DNA from: Escherichia phage T2
Length of the DNA stretch: 64,000 nucleotides
Strand: one strand, 5' to 3'
Sequence record: NC_054931.1
The notes below the pieces were generated by a model. The model was not told the origin of the DNA. It was given only the letters and a program-made list of their open reading frames with translations, and did no database searches. Positions 1 through 62,356 of this stretch are shown here, piece after piece. Made by a program: the position numbers and the translations under genes. Each line of letters opens with the position of its first letter. Position 1 is the stretch's first letter.

Positions 1-331
1 CTTTCATTGACTCATTTTCAATATAAGACATGTAGCTATTATATTCCTTTAATTGTATTTTGTAATCCTTTTTTCTTTGCCAATTTATTTTAAAATTATC
101 ATAATGAAAATATAAAATGATACCAAAGAATGAAAACAATGAAATAATTTTAGTATAACAAAGCTCACTCCAAACTTCTGTTATATTTACTGTGCCGTCG
201 ATGTTTAAAATAAGACAGTCAATTAACAATCCAAAAAGACTACCCGCAAGAGCTGCAGCCAACGCCACAGCAAAAATTAAAAATGACTCAGAAAACGAAT
301 ATTTGACTTTATTTAGTTTTGGCTTTTGCAT
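1..331 (-). CDS. hypothetical small membrane protein, N-terminal part (gene runs off window start)
   Basis: ATG at 331 on minus strand opens a frame reaching position 1; translation MQKPKLNKVKYSFSESFLIFAVALAAALAGSLFGLL... has hydrophobic helices and a basic tail; not in ORF track because incomplete. Confidence 0.4.
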   Translation of the reverse strand, partial: MQKPKLNKVKYSFSESFLIFAVALAAALAGSLFGLLIDCLILNIDGTVNITEVWSELCYTKIISLFSFFGIILYFHYDNFKINWQRKKDYKIQLKEYNSYMSYIENESMK

Positions 332-726
332 CGTGATTCCTTAACAAATTTCATAATTTCATTAAATTCATACTCAGCTAGTTTAAGCTGGTGTTCCTTT
401 TTAATCTTTTTACAATGAGCTTTCCAATCGTGTACACGTTTACGATAATGTCTTCCTTGATACCAGTATCCTACCCAATTTACAGGTACTAATAAAAATG
501 GAACTACCAATGGAAGAGTTAGCATTAACATAATTATTACGCCAGATTCAATATCAGTCATAACATCTAAAACACCTCCAATAATCAATAGAATTACAAA
601 TGATATGAGTATCACAGGACCTATTAATACGTCAGTAGGAATTATCTGGCGCTTTAATTCATACTTCAAAGGTTTACTTGGAAGGTATAGTGATGGCTTT
701 GACATATTCTCTACATTCCTTAACAA
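313..726 (-). CDS. hypothetical membrane protein (two predicted TM helices, basic C-terminus)
   Basis: 137-aa track ORF; hydrophobic stretches VILISFVILLIIGGVL and VIIMLMLTLPLVVPFLLV; true start may be the internal Met (MSKPSLY). Confidence 0.5.
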   Translation of the reverse strand: MLRNVENMSKPSLYLPSKPLKYELKRQIIPTDVLIGPVILISFVILLIIGGVLDVMTDIESGVIIMLMLTLPLVVPFLLVPVNWVGYWYQGRHYRKRVHDWKAHCKKIKKEHQLKLAEYEFNEIMKFVKESRCKSQN

Positions 727-1282
727 ATTTTTCTAGTAATAAATCACTTTCAAAATTAGGATTTTTCACTAATTTATCAAAAAGACCATCAACAATAGTT
801 AAAATATTCTTTTTGCTAAGAATACGTTTATTTTCATGCTTCGTTTCAGAGTCAACTATAAGAGTAAAGAAATATTTCTTTCCCTGAAATTTTACCGTAG
901 TATCAATATAAAATAAATTTGACTTTTGTAAGTTACGTTTAAACCATGCGTCACTTAAACTATAAACACCGAGATAATCAAAATCGTCGTTTAAATAACA
1001 AACTGACCATTCAGGAGAAATGAAATCAGTAAATTCAACATCAAAATCACATGTCAATAAATGAATTGATTCAATATTGTTAATAAGTATTCCAGGACGT
1101 ATTAAAGACTTTTTACCTCTGGAAAATCTTCCAGAAAGACTTTCATCAGTTTCATATGAAGAACCCCAATAATAATTACGTCCTTCTGCCATACGTTTAA
1201 GAGCATTTAGTAATTGGTCTGGAACATCAACCTGTCTTTGGAACTCTTCAAACATTGAATTGAAATCACTTTGCATTTTCAT
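674..1282 (-). CDS. hypothetical protein, 202 aa
   Basis: Complete track ORF in early-gene orientation; no motif recognised by eye. Confidence 0.5.
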   Translation of the reverse strand: MKMQSDFNSMFEEFQRQVDVPDQLLNALKRMAEGRNYYWGSSYETDESLSGRFSRGKKSLIRPGILINNIESIHLLTCDFDVEFTDFISPEWSVCYLNDDFDYLGVYSLSDAWFKRNLQKSNLFYIDTTVKFQGKKYFFTLIVDSETKHENKRILSKKNILTIVDGLFDKLVKNPNFESDLLLEKFVKECREYVKAITIPSK

Positions 1283-1304
1283 TCCTATTTACTCCAAGTA
1301 ATAG

Positions 1305-1330
1305 GGGGCCGAAGCCCCTTATCATTATTT
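1305..1330. terminator. GC tetraloop hairpin GGGGC-CGAA-GCCCC with flanking T-rich tract
   Basis: Perfect 5-bp stem with CGAA loop at 1305-1318; same hairpin type recurs at other gene junctions in the window. Confidence 0.45.
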
Positions 1331-1918
1331 CAGAGAATTAATATATTCCTGAACATCGGCAGAGGTAGTTTCAACCCCAGAAATATTGCCATTAAAGGTT
1401 TCAACTCGAGCAAGAGTATCTTCAATATCAACCTTAGTCAGTGCTGCAATTTCAACTACATCATCAGCAGTACTAATTCCAAGGGCATTTGCTGCACGAG
1501 TTTCACGGATATATTCCAATTTAACTGCAAGTTCTTGGCGAGCATCATCTAACTCAACTACTTTCTTAGCGATTTCAATTCGCATTTCAGCATAACCATC
1601 AGCTTTAGTAGTCAGCTGTTCAGCTGTTCGACGATATAGCAAACCGAGTTTAGCATGCATTGTTACATCTTGACCTTCGGAAAGAAGCTTGCGAATTTCA
1701 CGCTCTTTTGATTCAGCCTGTTTATTCTTTTCAACAATAAGTTCACGAATACGTTTTTCTTCATTAATAGATTTAACAGAAGCAGTTTTTAGGTCTTTAA
1801 TTTTATCAAGCAGTTTTGCTGCTGCGGCAGTATACTGTTCTTCAACAGATAGATTTTTAGCCATAGCAGAACCAAGTTTAGTGCGAATAAACTCAACAAT
1901 TTTCTTCAGTGTGTTCAT
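1325..1918 (-). CDS. hypothetical alpha-helical coiled-coil protein (remote PspA/IM30-like appearance, unverified)
   Basis: 197-aa ORF; heptad-like charged/hydrophobic periodicity throughout, N-terminal amphipathic segment. Confidence 0.55.
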
Positions 1919-1961
1919 AGTATTTCCTTAGGTTAATTAAGATTTAAAATCCATGAGAGTA

Positions 1962-2138
1962 TTATACTCCGGATAGTTTGTAAACTATTTCAACATCGCC
2001 TTTTGCTGCTTTATAACCTTCAGCCCAAGATACAACCGAGTTTTTATCTGAAGATTCAAATTCTGGCATTGGGCTTTCGCCAATGTTCACGCAATATGTT
2101 TCTTCATTTTCGTCGAACCAAATAATTAAAGTAGTCAT
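1962..2138 (-). CDS. hypothetical small protein, 58 aa
   Basis: ATG at 2138 preceded by GGAGAAAT Shine-Dalgarno; translation MTTLIIWFDENEETYCVNIG...; below track size cutoff. Confidence 0.35.
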   Translation of the reverse strand: MTTLIIWFDENEETYCVNIGESPMPEFESSDKNSVVSWAEGYKAAKGDVEIVYKLSGV

Positions 2139-2207
2139 TTATTTCTCCGTTTCTGTATTTGTTTTTGATAAGTCTATAATAACACCGTCCTTGGTGTTTG
2201 TACACAA

Positions 2208-2483
2208 TTATTTCATATTATTGAAATATTCTTCTGCGATTTCGTCGTTATCATGGTAAACTTTAGAAGACAGTTTAACATAACCTTCAGCAGTGAACAT
2301 GTTAATCACGACCTTTACAGTATACCACTGACCATCTTCATTACCCATTACTGCGTAAGTTTCAAACATCGGATGGTCAGGACCGATAACTTTAATATCA
2401 TTCACTGTACGACCGAAATCTTCTGAAACACATTTCATAAAGAAGTTGAACAGTTCACCGTAATTATCCATTTTATTCTCCAA
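2208..2483 (-). CDS. hypothetical protein, 91 aa
   Basis: Track ORF; GGAGAATAAAATG ribosome-binding context; sits directly downstream of an early promoter. Confidence 0.5.
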   Translation of the reverse strand: MENKMDNYGELFNFFMKCVSEDFGRTVNDIKVIGPDHPMFETYAVMGNEDGQWYTVKVVINMFTAEGYVKLSSKVYHDNDEIAEEYFNNMK

Positions 2484-2511
2484 GTTGTTTTCTGTATCAG
2501 TAGTTGATAGT

Positions 2512-2546
2512 TGTATAGTACCATGGAAGAACAGGGATGTAAACAG
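2512..2546 (-). promoter_or_regulatory. T4-type early promoter (-35 GTTTAC, -10 TACTAT)
   Basis: Minus-strand GTTTAC at 2539-2544 with ~18-bp spacer to TACTAT; A-rich upstream; member of the repeated early-promoter family. Confidence 0.5.
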
Positions 2547-2682
2547 TTTTGTGAAAAAATTTTTAAAAAGTTTTAGGGAATTCTAGGGCGGGGAGGGGCA
2601 ATTAAAAGATAGGATAATATATTATAAAGGGTATAAACTAAATGATGCCTAGAGAGGTCTGGAAAGGCCTAGATACCAAAAA

Positions 2683-2715
2683 GCCCCAACCTTTCGGTCG
2701 GGGCTAAGCCTTGCG
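2683..2715 (-). terminator. rho-independent terminator at the end of the tRNA/stable-RNA operon
   Basis: Minus-strand hairpin AGCCCCGACC-GAAA-GGTTGGGGCT followed by TTTT. Confidence 0.6.
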
Positions 2716-2758
2716 GCAACCTTGTCGGGGTTCCACCTGCTAAGGCAAGTGTTTGTAC

Positions 2759-2913
2759 GAAACGCCGGGATTTGAACCCGGTTATTAAGTAGTTGACGCT
2801 ACTCAATATTTTTAAAAGGCCATATCTCGACCATATCCGAACGTTCCGTCAAAAACGCTACTCGGCTTACAGCAAAGATATTTCCTCGAATCGATAATTC
2901 GGTGCGCCGTTTC
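2759..2913 (-). ncRNA. tRNA-like structured stable RNA (candidate counterpart of T4 species 1/2 RNA, rnaC/rnaD)
   Basis: ~155 nt with no ORF; 5-prime and 3-prime ends pair as an acceptor-like stem (GAAACG/CGTTTC); T-arm-like CCGGG-TTCAAAT-CCCGG at the 3-prime end; lies inside the tRNA operon. Confidence 0.35.
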
Positions 2914-3011
2914 TGCTGTGATAGTAAAGAGCCAGAACACAGTAAAACTGTGGGAGGAACTATACTCCAGGGAACATCAGTCCGACGACTTACCGGTAGC
3001 GACCCGGTTTC

Positions 3012-3362
3012 TTAATATTCTTTTAAAGCATCAATCTGTTCACGGCGTTTACGCCATAAATCAATTGCTTCATACGCGGATTCAGCATTTCGAATTAGCC
3101 GGCATTTATGTAAAGACTTGTGATTTTGGTATTGTGTAGATAATGGAATTTTATCTAAAAGGTCTTTACGTTCAAAGTATTCGTAACCATCTAAACCAAA
3201 TGAACGATTTTTGAGAAATTGCCAATGCCTAAATTCGTTTTCGACATAAACATAGTCTGCATGCTGATAAAGCAAATTAATTACACGTTCAGAAATAACA
3301 GTGTCATTATGATTAAAATAGAATGTTAAATCATGAACGACTAAATAAACATTACCTTTCAT
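3012..3362 (-). CDS. hypothetical protein, 116 aa, within the tRNA operon
   Basis: Track ORF between tRNA-Arg and the stable RNA. Confidence 0.45.
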   Translation of the reverse strand: MKGNVYLVVHDLTFYFNHNDTVISERVINLLYQHADYVYVENEFRHWQFLKNRSFGLDGYEYFERKDLLDKIPLSTQYQNHKSLHKCRLIRNAESAYEAIDLWRKRREQIDALKEY

Positions 3363-3370
3363 ATTTTCCT

Positions 3371-3446
3371 CACTTATAATTGGTCGAGGCAGTAGGGATC
3401 GAACCTACGACCCAGGACTTAGAAGGTCCTTGCTCTTCCTTCTGAG
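3371..3446 (-). tRNA. tRNA-Arg (anticodon TCT)
   Basis: Hand-folded cloverleaf; 7-bp acceptor CGAGGCA/TGCCTCG; anticodon loop CTTCTAA; encoded CCA. Confidence 0.8.
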
Positions 3447-3450
3447 CTAT

Positions 3451-3525
3451 GCCTCGTATTTGGCGGACGTGATAGGATTCGAACCTATAACCAATCGCTT
3501 AACAGGCGATCGCTCTGCCATTGAG
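3451..3525 (-). tRNA. tRNA-Asn (anticodon GTT)
   Basis: Hand-folded cloverleaf with all four arms; anticodon loop CTGTTAA; T-loop TTCGAAT; encoded CCA. Confidence 0.7.
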
Positions 3526-3529
3526 CTAC

Positions 3530-3616
3530 ACATCCAAATTGGTGGGGAGTGATGGAGTCGAACCACCCGAGTCGCAATGACAATGAATTTACAGTCCACA
3601 CCGCTACCTCTACGGG
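3530..3616 (-). tRNA. tRNA-Tyr (anticodon GTA), long variable arm
   Basis: 87 nt; acceptor GGGGAGT/ACTCCCC; anticodon loop CTGTAAA; overall layout parallels E. coli tRNA-Tyr; encoded CCA. Confidence 0.65.
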
Positions 3617-3626
3617 ATAACTCCCC

Positions 3627-3701
3627 CAAATTAATTTGGTGGCCCTGGGTGGAATTGAACCACCATCTGGCGATTATGAGTCGCTTGCTTGAACCTTCCA
3701 G
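3627..3701 (-). tRNA. tRNA with CAT anticodon (elongator Met or lysidine-type Ile)
   Basis: Cloverleaf with acceptor GGCCCTG/CAGGGCC; anticodon loop CTCATAA; encoded CCA. Confidence 0.7.
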
Positions 3702-3719
3702 CTACAGGGCCAAATTTTC

Positions 3720-4124
3720 TTATTTTATGTAATATTTATTTAAAAACTTTCTAGCTTGAGTATGGCTAACATTTATAGCGTTTGCATAATTTTTAATAAA
3801 ACCTCGTTCATCCATATTAAAATTTTCTAATATTTTTAATCGTCTAGTTATCTCATCTTTGCTTAAGGTACTTGCATTATTTTTAGAAATTTTTTCTAAG
3901 GACTGTGCCGAGTGTTTTCGACCATTAAAATTAAAATTTTTAGATTTTGGAGGAAATCTATCATTTAGTCTCGCATCTTTTGTATTTTGATTATTAGTTG
4001 CGCAATATATGTTATTTAATGAATATGGTCCTTTATCACCGAAACGGCACATGCAGTATTCATGACCCTTTCTTCCACGCTTATCATATTTTCCCGTTGA
4101 TTTCCACCAATAGCCATTCATCAA
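3720..4124 (-). CDS. putative free-standing HNH-type endonuclease-like protein with C-terminal HTH-like tail
   Basis: 134-aa ORF in the gap between the two tRNA subclusters; N-terminal His/Cys/Asn-rich segment (GHEYCMCRFG...NNIYCATNNQN) resembles an HNH-type fold; C-terminal NYANAINVSHTQARKFL resembles a helix-turn-helix. Confidence 0.4.
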   Translation of the reverse strand: MMNGYWWKSTGKYDKRGRKGHEYCMCRFGDKGPYSLNNIYCATNNQNTKDARLNDRFPPKSKNFNFNGRKHSAQSLEKISKNNASTLSKDEITRRLKILENFNMDERGFIKNYANAINVSHTQARKFLNKYYIK

Positions 4125-4245
4125 AAGTTAAATTCCATTCAATGTTTCTACGTATAGCAGAATTCCGCTGAGAAATATTTTGCATAATCTTCTTTCATCA
4201 CAAATTTCTCTACTTATTCAATACACCGAGCTAAATCAGCAAAAC

Positions 4246-4335
4246 TGGCGGAGGCGATAGGATTTGAACCTATGAGTCGCCGGAGCGACTGCCGGTTTTC
4301 AAGACCGGTGCATTAAACCACTCTGCCACGCCTCC
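4246..4335 (-). tRNA. tRNA-Ser (anticodon TGA), long variable arm
   Basis: Sequence matches recalled T4 tRNA-Ser; anticodon loop CTTGAAA; directly abuts tRNA-Pro (Pro-Ser dimeric precursor as in T4). Confidence 0.85.
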
Positions 4336-4337
4336 AG

Positions 4338-4411
4338 TCTCCATACAAGGATTTGAACCTTGGACCTCCTGATCCCAAATCAGGCGCTCTACCAAACTGA
4401 GCTACACGGAG
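4338..4411 (-). tRNA. tRNA-Pro (anticodon TGG)
   Basis: Cloverleaf; anticodon loop TTTGGGA; CCA not encoded. Confidence 0.8.
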
Positions 4412-4421
4412 TAAATTAAAT

Positions 4422-4495
<74 letters not shown>

Positions 4496-4500
4496 AAATT

Positions 4501-4587
4501 TGGTGCGAGAAGTGGGACTCGAACCCACAAGGAAATCATTCCGCAGCATTTTAAGTGCTGTGCCTTTACCAATTTGACCATTCTCGC
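4501..4587 (-). tRNA. tRNA-Leu (anticodon TAA), long variable arm
   Basis: Matches recalled T4 tRNA-Leu (GCGAGAATGGTCAAATTGGTAAAGGCACAGCACTTAAAATGCTGCGG...); abuts tRNA-Gln. Confidence 0.9.
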
Positions 4588-4588
4588 G

Positions 4589-4661
4589 CTGGGAATAAAG
4601 GACTCGAACCTTTGCATCTAGCAGTCAAAGTTCTATGCCTTACCAACTTGGCTAATTCCCA
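4589..4661 (-). tRNA. tRNA-Gln (anticodon TTG)
   Basis: Cloverleaf; anticodon loop CTTTGAC; CCA not encoded; first gene of subcluster I. Confidence 0.8.
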
Positions 4662-4747
4662 ATTATTAACAAAGGCTCTCAAATAAGAACCCTTGATGAT
4701 AGAGGGTATTAATCAATGCGATATGAGTTAATAATAACAAATATTTC

Positions 4748-5263
4748 TTAAAGCAAATCAACCATTTTAACAGTCGGCAAAACAATTTCTTCTTCGATAT
4801 AAGCAAATTCTACATGTTCAACTACACGCAAGAAATCATATTCATAGTATTCAGAAGCATGACCAAGAATATCAATGAGGCCTTCAAATATCTTATTACC
4901 ATTCACAAAGAATAAGTCAAATACACGTTCTTCATCTTCTTCGGATTTATTACCAAGGTCAACTTCTATATCAAAGACCTTTTTAATGAATTCTGGATAA
5001 AGTTGGTCTGAGAACAGTCCTTCAACCAAATATTCATATATAAAAAGCTCTTGCTCGCTGAACAACCCATTACCACAATAACGGTCAGCTTTAGTGCTAG
5101 AATGACGACTCTTAAACTTCTTCAAAAGATATTTAAATTGTTGGAGCTCATGCTCTTCTACGCCAAACAGTGTTTTGGTTTTATAGTTATCACCATCATT
5201 TTCCCAGGTAGTGACATCAATTACGTAACCCTTAGGAATTGTGCTGCCTAAACGAATATACAT
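4748..5263 (-). CDS. hypothetical early protein, 171 aa, acidic
   Basis: Track ORF; third gene of a short early cassette. Confidence 0.5.
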   Translation of the reverse strand: MYIRLGSTIPKGYVIDVTTWENDGDNYKTKTLFGVEEHELQQFKYLLKKFKSRHSSTKADRYCGNGLFSEQELFIYEYLVEGLFSDQLYPEFIKKVFDIEVDLGNKSEEDEERVFDLFFVNGNKIFEGLIDILGHASEYYEYDFLRVVEHVEFAYIEEEIVLPTVKMVDLL

Positions 5264-5553
5264 TTGTTCACCATATTAATGTAAGTATATTTAATACATT
5301 CAAGACCCAAAGGATTCTTGAAAATATCATATTCAAGAGGACCTTTTTCTGTTTCAATAAAGAAATCAAAATTTACTGTATTAAATTTACGGTCTTCCTT
5401 CACTAATTTAACTTGAGAAGATGAACGGTCAATGTAAACCTTTTCAACTTCAAAACATGTTAAAATGCCATAATCATCAATCAAGGCTTTAGCCGCATCT
5501 TGATCATATTTATATCCATTTTCAACGGACGATACTTTCGCATAAAGAATCAT
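5248..5553 (-). CDS. hypothetical early protein, 101 aa
   Basis: Track ORF; overlaps downstream gene by 16 nt (coupling). Confidence 0.5.
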   Translation of the reverse strand: MILYAKVSSVENGYKYDQDAAKALIDDYGILTCFEVEKVYIDRSSSQVKLVKEDRKFNTVNFDFFIETEKGPLEYDIFKNPLGLECIKYTYINMVNKCIFV

Positions 5554-5555
5554 TA

Positions 5556-5738
5556 TTAACCTTTAGAAATTTTATCCATAACGATAGCGATTAAACCAAT
5601 TAAAAATGCTACTACAAGTGAAAACACATTTTCTGCTGTAGTCAATAATCCGCATATAAATCCAACAAACATTGAAAAACTAAAAGCGGAAGCAGAAATT
5701 GCAATAGCAACATTTCGAATTAATTCACAACGTTTCAT
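5556..5738 (-). CDS. hypothetical small membrane protein, 60 aa (two hydrophobic helices)
   Basis: Track ORF; AIAISASAFSFSMFVGFICGLL and VFSLVVAFLIGLIAIV; first gene after an early promoter; GAGGAGAATAAAATG context. Confidence 0.5.
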   Translation of the reverse strand: MKRCELIRNVAIAISASAFSFSMFVGFICGLLTTAENVFSLVVAFLIGLIAIVMDKISKG

Positions 5739-5757
5739 TTTATTCTCCTCAGTAGTT

Positions 5758-5800
5758 GATAGGGTAATAATATCACCACCCTATCTAAAAGTAAACAGTT
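5758..5800 (-). promoter_or_regulatory. early promoter with overlapping stem-loop (PeSL-like cassette)
   Basis: Minus strand GTTTAC (5791-5796), 18-bp spacer, TATTAT; inverted repeat GATAGGG...CCCTATC (5758-5785) spans the -10 region. Confidence 0.5.
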
Positions 5801-5806
5801 TATAAA

Positions 5807-6115
5807 CTATTTTATTCCGCGTGATGCAATTGTATTCTGCCGTTTAGCACCAGTTTGTTTAAAGTCATGATTGTCGATTTGATCGGTACGAGCAACTCCG
5901 AATGATGATTTGATCTTAGCTTTAGATCCTTTAGTTATAGAAATAAACATCTCGGAAGCCCCTTTCTTAAAGTCCGAGGCGATTACTTCAACGCCGTTCT
6001 TAGCAAGTGACTTCAGAATTGCCTCTGCATACTCATCGTCAAGACTCGTCTGAGTATTAATAACGAATGTCTTTGGCGCAGCCGCTTCATTGATAAATTC
6101 TTTAAATGTTTTCAT
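5807..6115 (-). CDS. internal (head-packaged) protein with capsid targeting sequence
   Basis: 102 aa; N-terminus MKTFKEFINE-A matches T4 CTS consensus MKT(Y/F)(Q/K)EF plus I-x-E prohead protease cleavage motif; located in the IP locus next to 57B. Confidence 0.65.
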   Translation of the reverse strand: MKTFKEFINEAAAPKTFVINTQTSLDDEYAEAILKSLAKNGVEVIASDFKKGASEMFISITKGSKAKIKSSFGVARTDQIDNHDFKQTGAKRQNTIASRGIK

Positions 6116-6129
6116 TTTATTTTCCTAAT

Positions 6130-6165
6130 TAATTTTGATGAGGTAATAGTATCACAACTAAAACC
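6130..6165 (-). promoter_or_regulatory. T4-type early promoter (repeat copy)
   Basis: Minus strand GTTTAC (6159-6164), 18-bp spacer, TACTAT; ~70-bp cassette nearly identical to 6443-6514. Confidence 0.5.
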
Positions 6166-6187
6166 CTATGTAAACAACTTTGTGAAA

Positions 6188-6442
6188 TTATTTTAAATCT
6201 TCTAATCGTTTCTTCATCTTAGAACCGTTCTTAGCGATTTCGCCTGCATCAGAGCATAATGCTAAAAGCGCTTTAACTTTAGTTTGGTCTCCTTTAAAAG
6301 ATGAAGGATCAACAGCAGCAAGTTCTTTAATACGAGAGAAAAGACGCTCAGCTTCAGCTAAAGCCATTCCAAGTTTTACTTCCATACCATGGGAAGATTC
6401 AGTAATAGTAGTTTTTGTAGCAAACTCTTTGAAAGTTTTCAT
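6188..6442 (-). CDS. internal (head-packaged) protein with capsid targeting sequence
   Basis: 84 aa; N-terminus MKTFKEFATKTTITE-S: CTS consensus plus I-T-E cleavage motif; body unrelated to the neighbouring IP gene. Confidence 0.65.
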   Translation of the reverse strand: MKTFKEFATKTTITESSHGMEVKLGMALAEAERLFSRIKELAAVDPSSFKGDQTKVKALLALCSDAGEIAKNGSKMKKRLEDLK

Positions 6443-6463
6443 TTTATTTTCCTAATTAATTTT

Positions 6464-6502
6464 GATGAGATAATAGTATCACTACCTCATCAGTATGTAA
6501 AC
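6464..6502 (-). promoter_or_regulatory. early promoter with overlapping stem-loop (PeSL-like cassette)
   Basis: Minus strand GTTTAC (6497-6502), spacer, TACTAT inside inverted repeat GATGAG...CTCATC (6464-6491). Confidence 0.5.
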
Positions 6503-6514
6503 AACTTTGTGAAA

Positions 6515-7211
<697 letters not shown>

Positions 7212-7212
<1 letters not shown>

Positions 7213-7937
7213 TATAGTACCTTTAGTGTATTTTTAATTTTAGAAAAAAGTTCTTCAATAGAACCATCGTTTGTAATTACTAAATCGCCATCACGAATTG
7301 GCAATCCAGCTTCTGTAATATGTGTATCATTGGATTTTTGACCAGGACGAACTACATGAATTACTGTAGCACCCATCGCCCTAGCCGCATCCATTTCATG
7401 ATCTTGACGGGTATCAGGAACGATATAATAATCATAACCTGAGTTAAATTTATCAAGATAATCTAAAGCAAATAATTTTACCCAGTACATGCGGTCGAAG
7501 TTATTAACAATCAAATCCGTACCTAGGGCTTGCATCAGACGACGGACTGACCATTGATCTTCAATATTATTTATAACGTCAGTAATCTTGTTAAATGCTA
7601 CGAAATTAACTGATTCTTTTCCTTCGTCATCAAAAACAAACACACCTTTAATTGGGCTTTTACCATTAAGATAGCAAAATGCTTGTTCCATAATCGTGAT
7701 TACTTCTAATTTAGTCAGATTTAAATTAGTCTCACGATCATAGTCAATTCCTTCAAACTCTTTACGAGTTAAGCAAGGATAGTCAGTGTTTGCTGCAAAT
7801 ACTCCCCATGCATAAGCCAATGCATCCTTAATAGGACCAGCAAGTTGGTATTTAACTGCAGAATAATTGCTCATGATAAAATCAGCAGTAGTATCTTTTC
7901 CACTACGCTTTACACCACTTAAAAAGATTAGTTTCAT
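7212..7937 (-). CDS. 1: deoxynucleoside monophosphate kinase
   Basis: 241 aa from MKLIFLSGVKRSGKDT (P-loop); same length as T4 gp1; track ORF extends 13 codons upstream. Confidence 0.9.
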
Positions 7938-7986
7938 GTGTTTCTCCTCAAATTTAATTAAGATTATAACACACAAAACTGAAGCA

Positions 7987-8517
7987 TTAAACTTCTGCTA
8001 TAATTTTTCCATCTTTTTCTACTTGAAAATAGGTGTAAGGAATCGTAGCTGTACATACTAAAGCCGGGTCTGAATCTTCTGTGTAGCTAAATTCTACTTC
8101 AGATAGGTCAGAAACCCAAGGCTTATAAAAATTTATTGACATCACGATTTCAGTTTTGCTATTATCTAAGATGTAAAGCGTAATGTACTCAGGACCTGTT
8201 TTTTGGGCAGTATTTTCACCTGTAAGATAGTTGCTAGTTCCTAGCATCCATTCATACATTCCTATCCATGACTTAAGTTCTTCATCAACTATAAATCTCA
8301 CAATGAGTGGATCGTACTCAAATGTAGCACCTGGACGTTGTGCTCGGCCCAGTCCAAACGGCCCAGTCACGGTATCAGTAACAGGTATTCTAATTCCTGG
8401 AATAGGAACTGACTGAGCATTTAAAGTAAAAGCAGATGTAGTATTACTATGTGGTATTGATACTACAAAGTTAGTTGTATTTGCTTGGTTAAAAATTTGT
8501 TGCAGAGCTTGCGACAT
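7987..8517 (-). CDS. 3: tail completion and sheath stabiliser protein
   Basis: 176 aa from MSQALQQIFNQANTTNF matching T4 gp3; track ORF extends 27 codons upstream. Confidence 0.9.
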   Translation of the reverse strand: MSQALQQIFNQANTTNFVVSIPHSNTTSAFTLNAQSVPIPGIRIPVTDTVTGPFGLGRAQRPGATFEYDPLIVRFIVDEELKSWIGMYEWMLGTSNYLTGENTAQKTGPEYITLYILDNSKTEIVMSINFYKPWVSDLSEVEFSYTEDSDPALVCTATIPYTYFQVEKDGKIIAEV

Positions 8518-8623
8518 ATATTCCTCATAATGCTTTATAACTGTTGGTGGTATAATGGGTCTAAGTCCCTTCCATTCAATTCCATTTAGAACAAACAACA
8601 GAAAAGAATGGAAGATAATAGAA

Positions 8624-9448
8624 TTAGATATTTGACCAGACTTTGTTTGCAGAGAAACGTTTTCCTTTTGAAACGAACTGCTGAAGTGGCATCAACACAA
8701 CGTTCGCCCAGTCTTTCGGGGCGATTTCAACAAGGCTACCCATAATATTACCAGGTATATACGCCTTAATCATTTGATCTGCACCTCTAAATCCTTTCAC
8801 TTGACTCCAATCAATTTTTAATTTCGTTTTATTAGTAATAGTAGGTGTATTTGCATATTGCTTTAAAAGCTCTTCTAGAAATTGCTGACGAGCTTTAGGT
8901 GGAATATAGTGCAAGTTCAATCCGTACATTAAATTATGCTTACCTAAACCAAGGTAAATTATCAAAGGAAATTTATCCCAATAAGGAAGAGTTTCCTTGT
9001 GTTTAGCATCATAAGCAAAAGCATATATTCGTCCCGGCTGCGGGCGAACAACTTTATGTCCTTTTACTTGCTTAATAGTTTCGGCAAACCACTTTCTGGT
9101 TTTATTATTAATTGCTGCACCTTCATTACGAATTTTATCACGCAATGTTTGTCTGAATGAATTTATCATAAGCAGTTGTCTTTCTTGCTTATTGAGTTTA
9201 TTCATTGGTTTTGATTCAAGTTTTTGAATCTTTTCAGCCGTTTTAATTCCTGAAGCATATTTTGACATTGCTGAAGTAAACGTAGAGTATTTGATTCCTC
9301 TTTCTTCAGCAAATTGCTTTCCTGTCATTCCTTTTGCTTTGGCCTTTTTGTATTCAAGACCTATCTGAATCCATTTCTTTTCGTTTAATGATTGCTTAAC
9401 CTTTGGAACTTGGGGAGTGCTTTCATTAATTATTTGAAAAATAGCCAT
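8624..9448 (-). CDS. 2: DNA end protector protein
   Basis: 274 aa, matches T4 gp2 in sequence and length. Confidence 0.9.
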
Positions 9449-53685: not shown

Positions 53686-53716
53686 TTTGTGTTCCTCATG
53701 TTATGTCAGTAAGATT

Positions 53717-53746
53717 ATTATAACACAACATAAGGAACTTGTAAAC
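53717..53746 (-). promoter_or_regulatory. sigma70/T4 early-type promoter (-35 GTTTACA, 17-bp spacer, -10 TATAAT)
   Basis: Read on the minus strand: GTTTACAAGTTCCTTATGTTGTGTTATAAT, immediately upstream of the 96-aa ORF. Confidence 0.6.
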
Positions 53747-61704: not shown

Positions 61705-62068
61705 AAATATCAAATTCGTTAAGAACTACATCAAAGATTGCTTCAAGATGCTCAGGTTTAGCTCTGTTACTCAGAATATGACGAATCCAAGTTTTAACCA
61801 AAAGCTTGCGATTAGCACCATTCCAGCAAGGATGAGTCCCTAAATCGCGTTGACGAAAATCATCATCCAGAGCGATTTTAAAGTTGGAACCTTCCATTGT
61901 GATTGAAACCGTGATGCCATTTTCAAATCGCATATAAACATAGTTAGGAGTCATATACTGTTCAATTTCGCATACTGATCCATTTTGATGTTTCCAAAGG
62001 CAGATAGTATCAATAGAACCTGCAATACCATTAGAAACATATTTACGTTCAAAGTTGATGTAGTTCAT
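61703..62068 (-). CDS. hypothetical protein, ~121 aa
   Basis: Track ORF trimmed to MNYINFERKY preceded by AAGGAG. Confidence 0.55.
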   Translation of the reverse strand: MNYINFERKYVSNGIAGSIDTICLWKHQNGSVCEIEQYMTPNYVYMRFENGITVSITMEGSNFKIALDDDFRQRDLGTHPCWNGANRKLLVKTWIRHILSNRAKPEHLEAIFDVVLNEFDI

Positions 62069-62089
62069 TTTTATTCTCCTTTGTTTGTG

Positions 62090-62127
62090 TAAGATAATAC
62101 TATCACAAAGGAACCATACTGTAAACA
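62090..62127 (-). promoter_or_regulatory. T4-type early promoter (-35 GTTTACA, -10 TAGTAT)
   Basis: Minus-strand GTTTAC (62121-62126) with 18-bp spacer; same family as the IP-locus promoters. Confidence 0.5.
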
Positions 62128-62149
62128 ACTTTATGCAATCTTTGGAAAA

Positions 62150-62176
62150 TAAAAAAGGACTCCCGAAGGAGTCCTC
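62150..62176 (-). terminator. rho-independent terminator
   Basis: Minus-strand hairpin AGGACTCC-TTCG-GGAGTCCT followed by TTTTTTATTTT. Confidence 0.65.
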
Positions 62177-62179
62177 AAC

Positions 62180-62356
62180 TTATGCTTTCTGCTTACCAAA
62201 ACGAGAAGCATCATCTCGAAGAACCGCACGTGCTCGGCGCATGATCTTCTCAACAGTTTGATTGATACGAGAGTTCGACCCACGCTTGTAGCCAGCGCGT
62301 TTAGAATCACCAACTTTCTTTTCAACTGCTTTCTTTGCTTTAGCTTGTTTTGCCAT
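62180..62356 (-). CDS. hypothetical small lysine/arginine-rich protein, 58 aa
   Basis: MAKQAKAKKAVEKKVGDSKRAGYKRG...; terminator immediately downstream. Confidence 0.5.
   Translation of the reverse strand: MAKQAKAKKAVEKKVGDSKRAGYKRGSNSRINQTVEKIMRRARAVLRDDASRFGKQKA

Follow-up and report, generated by a model that had tools for sequence, protein, structure and literature searches.

Promoter-early stem-loops (PeSLs) were defined in phages RB49 and phi1 by Arbiol et al. 2010 (PMC2839356), who credited 'PeSL-like' elements at two internal-protein (ip) loci of the T-even phages to Repoila et al. 1994. These T-even elements are based on T4 early promoters, carry weaker, AT-rich and variable stem-loops, and were called analogues, not homologues, of the RB49 PeSLs (PMC2839356). 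PeSLs were later extended to PST/T4 and nt-1/KVP40, with a PST/T4 consensus of TTTACW-N17-TAYWAT (Comeau et al. 2014, PMC4122927). The internal proteins encoded at the T-even loci form a diverse anti-restriction set with only the targeting sequence in common (Rao & Black 2010, PMC3012670), and after injection they disarm host restriction systems (PMC3012670, PMC12373910). A further relevant precedent is provided by the T4 genes e, soc, 49 and I-TevI, where folding of long transcripts from upstream conceals the ribosome-binding site, the 5' arm being missing from promoter-proximal transcripts (Uzan & Miller 2010, PMC3014915). Here we analyse a 64,000-nucleotide (nt) stretch of Escherichia phage T2 (NC_054931.1; hereafter the window), which corresponds to positions 63998-127997 of T2 record MH751506.1, with a 4.4-kb region 100% identical to T2, and in which a first-pass annotation had described a family of repeated promoter plus stem-loop cassettes bounding accessory genes. 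We consider it very probable that these cassettes are T2 early promoters, and that one near-identical pair of them, in front of ip5 and ip7, flanks swappable internal-protein genes and provides the points of recombination.

The closest match to the T2 arrangement is the T-even ip-locus cassette known through PMC2839356 and PMC3012670: locus, early promoter, variable AT-rich stem-loop, conserved leader and diverse cargo are the same, nothing substantive differs, and the T2 content (ip5 plus ip7, with a chimeric ip7 promoter) is a further instance. The phenomenon is thus already known, and the first-pass annotation is a correct rediscovery of a principle present in the literature since 1994, 2010 and 2014.

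Early promoters of T4 combine a GTTTAC -35, a TGn extended -10, a TAnnAT -10 and an A/T-rich upstream element, and all seven T2 copies considered here belong to this class without difference. The five copies originally listed are all present upstream of accessory genes, each fitting GTTTAC-N18-TAnnAT, and they lie on the minus strand, as do all T2 genes, hairpins and other elements located below. They precede e.8 (2515-2544), trna.4 (5767-5796; -35 at 5791-5796, -10 TATTAT at 5767-5772), ip7 (6146-6175; -35 at 6170-6175, -10 TACTAT at 6146-6151), ip5 (6473-6502; -35 GTTTAC at 6497-6502, -10 TACTAT at 6473-6478) and, at 62097-62126, the gene 30.7 that this last promoter now drives. The hexamers were described correctly, with GTTTAC in all five and a -10 of TACTAT in three, TATTAT in one and TAGTAT in one (30.7); the sites as such are likewise real, although the span 6130-6165 assigned to the ip7 copy omits its -35. 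A weight matrix trained on the genome-wide T2 early promoters and then scanned over the window returned seven strong minus-strand matches (31.7-63.6 bits, compared to 0.07 per random window), the scores of six of which are inflated because these promoters belonged to the training set, and a single weak plus-strand match of 16.9 bits. The search confirmed the five copies and revealed that the earlier list was incomplete, having overlooked the alt.-3 early promoter at 53717-53746 (element 53691-53746) and an additional promoter at 2176-2205, upstream of a 58-amino-acid (aa) open reading frame (ORF; 1962-2138). An exact GTTTAC/TAnnAT match with the -10 placed 17 nt past TTTAC(A/T) is found in the five copies and at 53717-53746, whereas the promoter at 2176-2205 deviates (-35 GTGTAC, -10 TATTAT) and has a small ACACC/GGTGT hairpin in its spacer. 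The extended -10 TG precedes the -10 in the copies that the scan reported.

The whole T2 genome was put together from four pieces. It contains about 27 promoters of this type, all oriented with early genes, and their consensus, aaaa..tttca.aaAgctGTTTACat...ctGTGgTActATa..cctatca, takes in the AT-rich stretch upstream, the GTTTAC and TGn motifs, the -10 and the bases transcribed first. When 90 nt aligned on the -35 are compared, the five copies show pairwise identities of 43-62% against a class median of 47%, so that in place of a dedicated cassette family they are unremarkable representatives of a class with about 27 members; the nearest relatives of the e.8 promoter, for example, are T2 early promoters outside the window (79%). 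An absence of alignment beyond the generic hexamers, which would have spoken against any shared element, is not what we observe, as the five copies are 36-58% identical outside the hexamers compared to 27% expected for unrelated sequence of the same composition, but this similarity is merely that of the class except in the ip5/ip7 pair, the only one to exceed it (88% over the 90 nt anchored on the -35). Judged from the sequence, the repeats amount to T-even early promoters as a class, with ip5/ip7 as the one true duplication, and the copies are putative sigma-70-type T2 early promoters, which would fire in the first minutes of infection and lead to expression of the small accessory genes.

The pair that had been described as 85% identical over about 90 bp is in fact a duplication of 109 nt at 89% identity, linking 6095-6203 with 6422-6530 at a distance of 327 nt. 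Copy A, the ip5 cassette (6422-6530), comprises the final codons of 57B with its stop (..DDLK-stop), an AT-rich region, the promoter, a leader with an AGGA Shine-Dalgarno sequence and the first seven codons of ip5 (MKTFKEF); copy B, the ip7 cassette (6095-6203), carries a chimeric promoter and no intact stem. The duplication therefore reaches past what a promoter needs, into the upstream gene's stop and last codons (57B and ip5 both end in ..DLK-stop) and into the seven MKTFKEF codons, and the identity covers synonymous sites of the leader peptide. MKTFKEF is the capsid-targeting leader of internal proteins, and both ip7 (5807-6115; 102 aa; phrog_2667; leader MKTFKEFINE) and ip5 (6188-6442; 84 aa; phrog_3499; leader MKTFKEFATKTTITE) conform to the N-terminal targeting sequence MKT(F/Y)(K/Q)EF, their PHROG matches to internal head protein having E values of 5e-41 and 1.8e-47. 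Under the (I/L)-x-E prohead-protease cleavage rule, which we take to apply here, cuts would fall between MKTFKEFINE and A in ip7 and between MKTFKEFATKTTITE and S in ip5. The ip7 promoter is a mosaic: its left half, ATAGGGTTTTAGTTGTGA, is of the type found at the T4 trna.4 promoter and in the related loci L034 and L003, which extends up to GTGATACTATTACC in the -10 core, and its right half, CCTCATCAAAATTAATTAGG, is of the ip type, the join at GTGATACTATTACC having broken the stem.

The leaders following these promoters fall into two kinds. Those of ip5 (6443-6462) and ip7 (6116-6135) read AGGAAAATAAAATG and are free of GGAG, whereas those of trna.4 (5739-5752), e.8 (2472-2485) and 30.7 (62069-62082) read GGAGAATAAA(A)ATG, the motif at which the RegB nuclease cleaves early mRNAs. 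The GGAG-free leaders would fit ip mRNAs that have to last into late infection.

We compared the slot bounded by 57B (6515-6970), its conserved left flank, and trna.4 (5556-5738), its conserved right flank, with 36 related loci, which hold between 0 and 5 internal-protein genes of more than 10 families, all beginning with MK(T/S)(F/Y)(K/Q)EF. T4 has ipI in the slot, and homology between T2 and T4 stops 35 nt into ip5 and restarts inside the trna.4 promoter, with ipI in between. Both L003 and L034 contain a different 81-aa internal protein. The difference between T2 and L033 is exactly one 327-nt unit, that is, ip5 plus one cassette, and the single L033 cassette (6441-6549) aligns to both T2 copies; as its upstream part is ip5-type and its coding start ip7-type, the crossover is placed within the 35-nt identical leader. 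Furthermore, three different left halves precede the ip7 module, one each in L033, T2 and L026. Alignment with relatives at this slot thus bears out the expectation that cargo should differ with breakpoints inside the cassettes, and it supports a cassette-mediated exchange in which recombination would be the operating mechanism. Relatives' indels ending in or beside cassettes were found at the ip slot and at a deletion of gene 30.8, not for the e.8 or trna.4 cargo.

In more distant relatives (L004-L038, around 6453-6456), the 57B stop (..TTAAAATGA) lies in an overlap with the first ip gene, no promoter separates the two genes, and many internal proteins end in (L/Y/F)K-stop, as 57B does in ..DLK-stop. 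These sequences suggest conservation of the module's 3' junction in addition to that of its 5' leader. As every ip gene in the slot begins and ends with the same module, homologous recombination of the phage could delete, insert or replace genes between 57B and trna.4, with crossovers possible anywhere in the module, the conserved -10 core included. Mini-circle excision between tandem cassettes is part of the PeSL scheme; in T2, recombination between the tandem copies is predicted to release ip5 as a mini-circle of 327 bp.

Shorter common stretches may act likewise elsewhere, as with the leader GGAGAATAAAA in the loss of 30.8. In FL34 and like relatives the order is 30.9, terminator, P, 30.8, P', 30.7, and T2 lacks 30.8 (110 aa in phage FL34; T2 62066-62180, L062 600-1140) together with P', with the result that T2 has 30.7 fused to the promoter that drives 30.8 in FL34. 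The two sides of the deletion meet within GGAGAATAAAA(A)TGAA, common to the leaders of both FL34 promoters, P30.8 and P30.7. How often each cargo gene occurs was scored as the number of phage records with a match at at least 95% identity: e.8 is found in 505, trna.4 in 504 and 30.7 in 544, as common as the flanking 57B (501), compared to 246 for ip5 and 49 for ip7 (250 and 114 at at least 90%). The designation of all these genes as swappable modules therefore holds for ip5 and ip7, and the loss of 30.8 adds a case of differing cargo at the 30.7 locus, but it fails for e.8, trna.4 and 30.7, whose near-universal presence in close relatives means that having such a promoter is not enough to identify a gene as swappable. 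The slot after e.8 (1962-2205) is also variable: T2 has the 58-aa ORF behind its GTGTAC-type promoter, in T4 and L033 (10934) the gene present is e.7, whose promoter bears a 10-bp hairpin (ACAGGCTCAT/ATGAGCCTGT), and L003 and L034 (11222) have retained the e.7 promoter and lost e.7.

We then turn to the stem-loops, of which three had been claimed to overlap the -10. Two are strong, at ip5 and trna.4. The ip5 hairpin (6463-6492) has perfect arms, TGATGAG (6486-6492) and CTCATCA (6463-6469), a folding energy of -14.8 kcal/mol and z scores of -3.5 and -4.25, and as RNA it forms 13 bp including three G.U, with the -10 divided between the loop and the 3' side of the extended stem. The trna.4 hairpin, GATAGGGT/ACCCTATC (5758-5785), lies over the -10 and reaches -16.0 kcal/mol (z -3.8 and -3.2). 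A third repeat, TTTGTG/CACAAA at 30.7, is weak and better described as a 9-bp pairing of spacer and Shine-Dalgarno sequence (62076-62113; -12.1 kcal/mol) of marginal significance (z -2.1); ip7 has the right arm only, CCTCATC, whose folding yielded no partner and no significant stem (z -0.5 to -0.9), and folding of e.8 (z +0.55, or -0.7 over a longer window) and of 2176-2205 likewise gave no significant hairpin. The alt.-3 element (53691-53746) folds best, into a hairpin of about 20 bp between the spacer and the leader plus Shine-Dalgarno sequence (-24.1 kcal/mol, z -5.9), so that significant stems, with z from -3.2 to -5.9, are confined to ip5, trna.4 and alt.-3 in this set.

The pairing is statistically real across the class. 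Perfect stems of at least 6 bp bridging the -10 occur in 11 of the 27 T2 promoters compared to 2.7 expected from exchanging arms among promoters (0 of 2000 permutations), and native halves fold to a mean of -12.5 kcal/mol compared to -9.0 for swapped halves (3.3 better), a value matched in 0 of 20,000 permutations. In a set of 81 distinct promoters, drawn from T2, T4 and 36 loci of metagenomic or isolate origin, pairing concentrates in two registers centred on the -10, with others near zero. A 30-sequence ungapped alignment (A1) has 71% of cells paired compared to 63% after shuffling and 37-51% with partners slid, figures to be read knowing that the alignment was chosen with the stem-bearing promoters in view and that related sequences inflate shuffle statistics. 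Both sides change in 10 of the 13 pairs, as in AGGGCT/AGCCCT compared to AGGGTT/AACCCT in orthologous trna.4 promoters; for alt.-3 just five near-identical loci were available. The stem pairing is not a composition artefact. Standard sigma-70 geometry places the start of the promoter's own transcript within the 3' arm, so the structure would exist only in read-through RNA or single-stranded DNA.

In about 40% of the T2 early promoters the spacer is complementary to the start-site sequence or to the leader plus Shine-Dalgarno sequence. The proposed pairing is of two kinds, in which the spacer would pair with sequence just past the -10 (ip5, trna.4) or with the leader and Shine-Dalgarno sequence (30.7, alt.-3), and the hairpin would be confined to RNA coming from upstream. 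We offer tentatively, as a reading clearly less probable than not, the idea that the stem-loop may be no terminator but a general T-even early-promoter device, whereby folding of upstream RNA would conceal the ribosome-binding or RegB (GGAG) site, or would yield a stable 5' hairpin, and promoter-born RNA would do neither. The geometry of a promoter within the DNA for the hairpin's 5' arm or loop, known from e, soc, 49 and I-TevI, is found at T2 alt.-3 and 30.7. Those promoters are late and their effect was shown experimentally, whereas the T2 promoters are early and the effect is predicted, and the ip5 and trna.4 hairpins differ further in leaving the Shine-Dalgarno sequence uncovered. In predicted read-through RNA the Shine-Dalgarno sequence is hidden at 11 of the 27 promoters. 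A promoter-specific hiding was rejected, as foreign left halves perform equally (mean unpaired probability 0.34 compared to 0.38 for native ones, P = 0.85), both values lying below the 0.74 of promoter-initiated RNA; promoter specificity is limited to the longer stems (alt.-3, regB, ip5, trna.4 and others). Genome-wide, T2 early-promoter spacers are pyrimidine-rich and generically complementary to Shine-Dalgarno sequences, and any left half hides almost any downstream one. Hiding in read-through RNA may thus be a class-wide property or mere composition.

Whether the T2 elements are PeSLs in the published sense depends on which part of the definition is considered. The layout agrees: AT-rich region, -35, -10, stem-loop, Shine-Dalgarno sequence and ATG follow each other in about 100 bp of intergenic DNA, four of the five copies fit the PST/T4 consensus while the 30.7 copy (TAGTAT) deviates, indels between relatives end in cassettes, and a stem over the -10 corresponds to the commonest RB49 classes. 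The T2 stems differ in being AT-rich and heterogeneous, not GGGG..CCCC, and in lacking a terminator signature, and the PST/T4 position of the stem-loop, just upstream of the promoter, occurs in T2 only at the 30.7 copy. The PeSL match claimed in the first pass therefore stands for the layout and falls short with regard to the missing terminator signature, the stems absent at e.8 and ip7, and the status of analogues that the original authors gave to T-even ip elements. The strict form of the PeSL model, in which each copy is promoter and terminator at once and the stem-loop stops or attenuates upstream transcription, insulating autonomous mobile cassettes, seems to us unlikely. It draws on the demonstration that termination at one RB49 stem-loop matches that at rrnB T1 and on the placement of RB49 stem-loops mostly between -35 and -10 or over the -10 (Arbiol 2010), and the 30.7 copy does have a canonical intrinsic terminator, GAGGACTCC..GGAGTCCTT plus a T-run (62155-62176), 29 nt upstream of its -35, as in the PST/T4 layout (Comeau 2014). 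This is, however, the only true terminator-promoter composite. What comes after the hairpins of ip5 and trna.4 is A/C-rich (CAAAAUUAAUU, AACUACUGAGG) and not a U-tract, a terminator scan called none at the first four copies, and the stems straddling the -10 were rejected as terminators on this signature. Read-through is moreover needed, as the late promoter closest to ip5 and ip7 on their upstream side is the motif TATAAATA inside gene 1 (7568-7575), with none between it and the ip genes, and late ip mRNA must therefore read through both cassettes.

Several observations weigh against our preferred reading. Class-level similarity might stem from functional constraint and not from common descent; e.8, trna.4 and 30.7 are conserved cargo though they bear promoters; the loss of 30.8 used about 12 nt of identity, which is microhomology and not cassette-length homology; and stemless chimeric promoters (T2 ip7, L026, L019) persist, indicating that, for the short term at least, the hairpin can be done without. 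On a rival reading the promoters would be bystanders, independent but alike by constraint, with gene turnover due to homing endonucleases or illegitimate recombination. This would agree with four of the five copies being no more alike than any T2 early-promoter pair, with the conserved cargo behind three of the five, and with the endonuclease-type insertion slot in the adjoining tRNA region (segB in T4, a different ORF in T2), but we regard it as quite improbable in view of the ip5/ip7 identity at non-promoter positions, the difference between T2 and L033 of exactly one repeat unit, and the location of both the ip7 promoter mosaic and the 30.8 junction within cassettes. It is if anything a shade less credible that the inverted repeat works at the DNA level, as a cruciform, a single-stranded DNA hairpin or the site of a dimeric protein, for example in early-promoter shut-off or as a nick site that starts recombination. 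The dyad centre is indeed fixed relative to the -10, as the register peak indicates, early-promoter shut-off has been described as not fully understood (PMC3014915), and Arbiol 2010 speculated on a stem-binding recombination protein. Yet pairing is preserved between arms whose sequences are wholly different from one promoter to the next, which speaks against a sequence-specific protein site, and perfect DNA stems of just 7-8 bp with 12-16-nt loops are poor cruciform formers, continuous helices of 12-13 bp being obtained only if G.U is allowed, which favours RNA. Wobble asymmetry, which bears on the choice between RNA and DNA, amounts to 10 G.T compared to 10 A.C mismatches, and three single-step departures in close relatives are all G.U on the sense strand, with a chance probability of 0.125.

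Every gene within positions 1-8000 of the window lies on the minus strand, in the order e.3 to e.8, two small stable RNAs, a 116-aa ORF, nine tRNAs split by the ORF trna.1, RB32ORF134c, trna.2, trna.4, ip7, ip5, 57B, 57A and gene 1. The product of 57B, entered in records as 'hypothetical protein' or 'RNA ligase', is an Acb1-family anti-CBASS phosphodiesterase (Pfam PF23474, E 2.6e-60), which places the internal-protein array directly behind another counter-defence gene. A Pfam search gave no match for ip5, ip7 or the neighbouring small ORFs. The region 2600-3010, between e.8 and the ORF at 3012-3362, has about 95% identity to the T4 stable small RNAs rnaD and rnaC, including a terminator at 2682-2705, and carries no annotation in T2 record MH751506; the function of rnaC and rnaD is still unknown according to PMC3014915, and an Rfam search of 1-9000 returned only tRNAs and sub-threshold noise. 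The tRNA cluster has Asn, Tyr and Met in T2 in place of Ile and Thr in T4, and trna.1 (134 aa; 3720-4124; phrog_16521, unknown function, no Pfam match) interrupts it where T4 has the homing endonuclease gene segB.

The window offers clean examples in a classic phage of an exact one-unit indel, a visibly recombinant promoter and a gene loss via two cassette leaders. The part that might repay more work is the promoter-straddling hairpin, which is statistically real and covarying: if the general hairpin device were true, it would extend the 'promoter inside hairpin' logic of e, soc and 49 to the early class and would explain why many co-transcribed small genes retain their own promoters. As injected internal proteins disarm restriction, a mechanism for swapping them rapidly would bear on host range and on the design of phage therapy.

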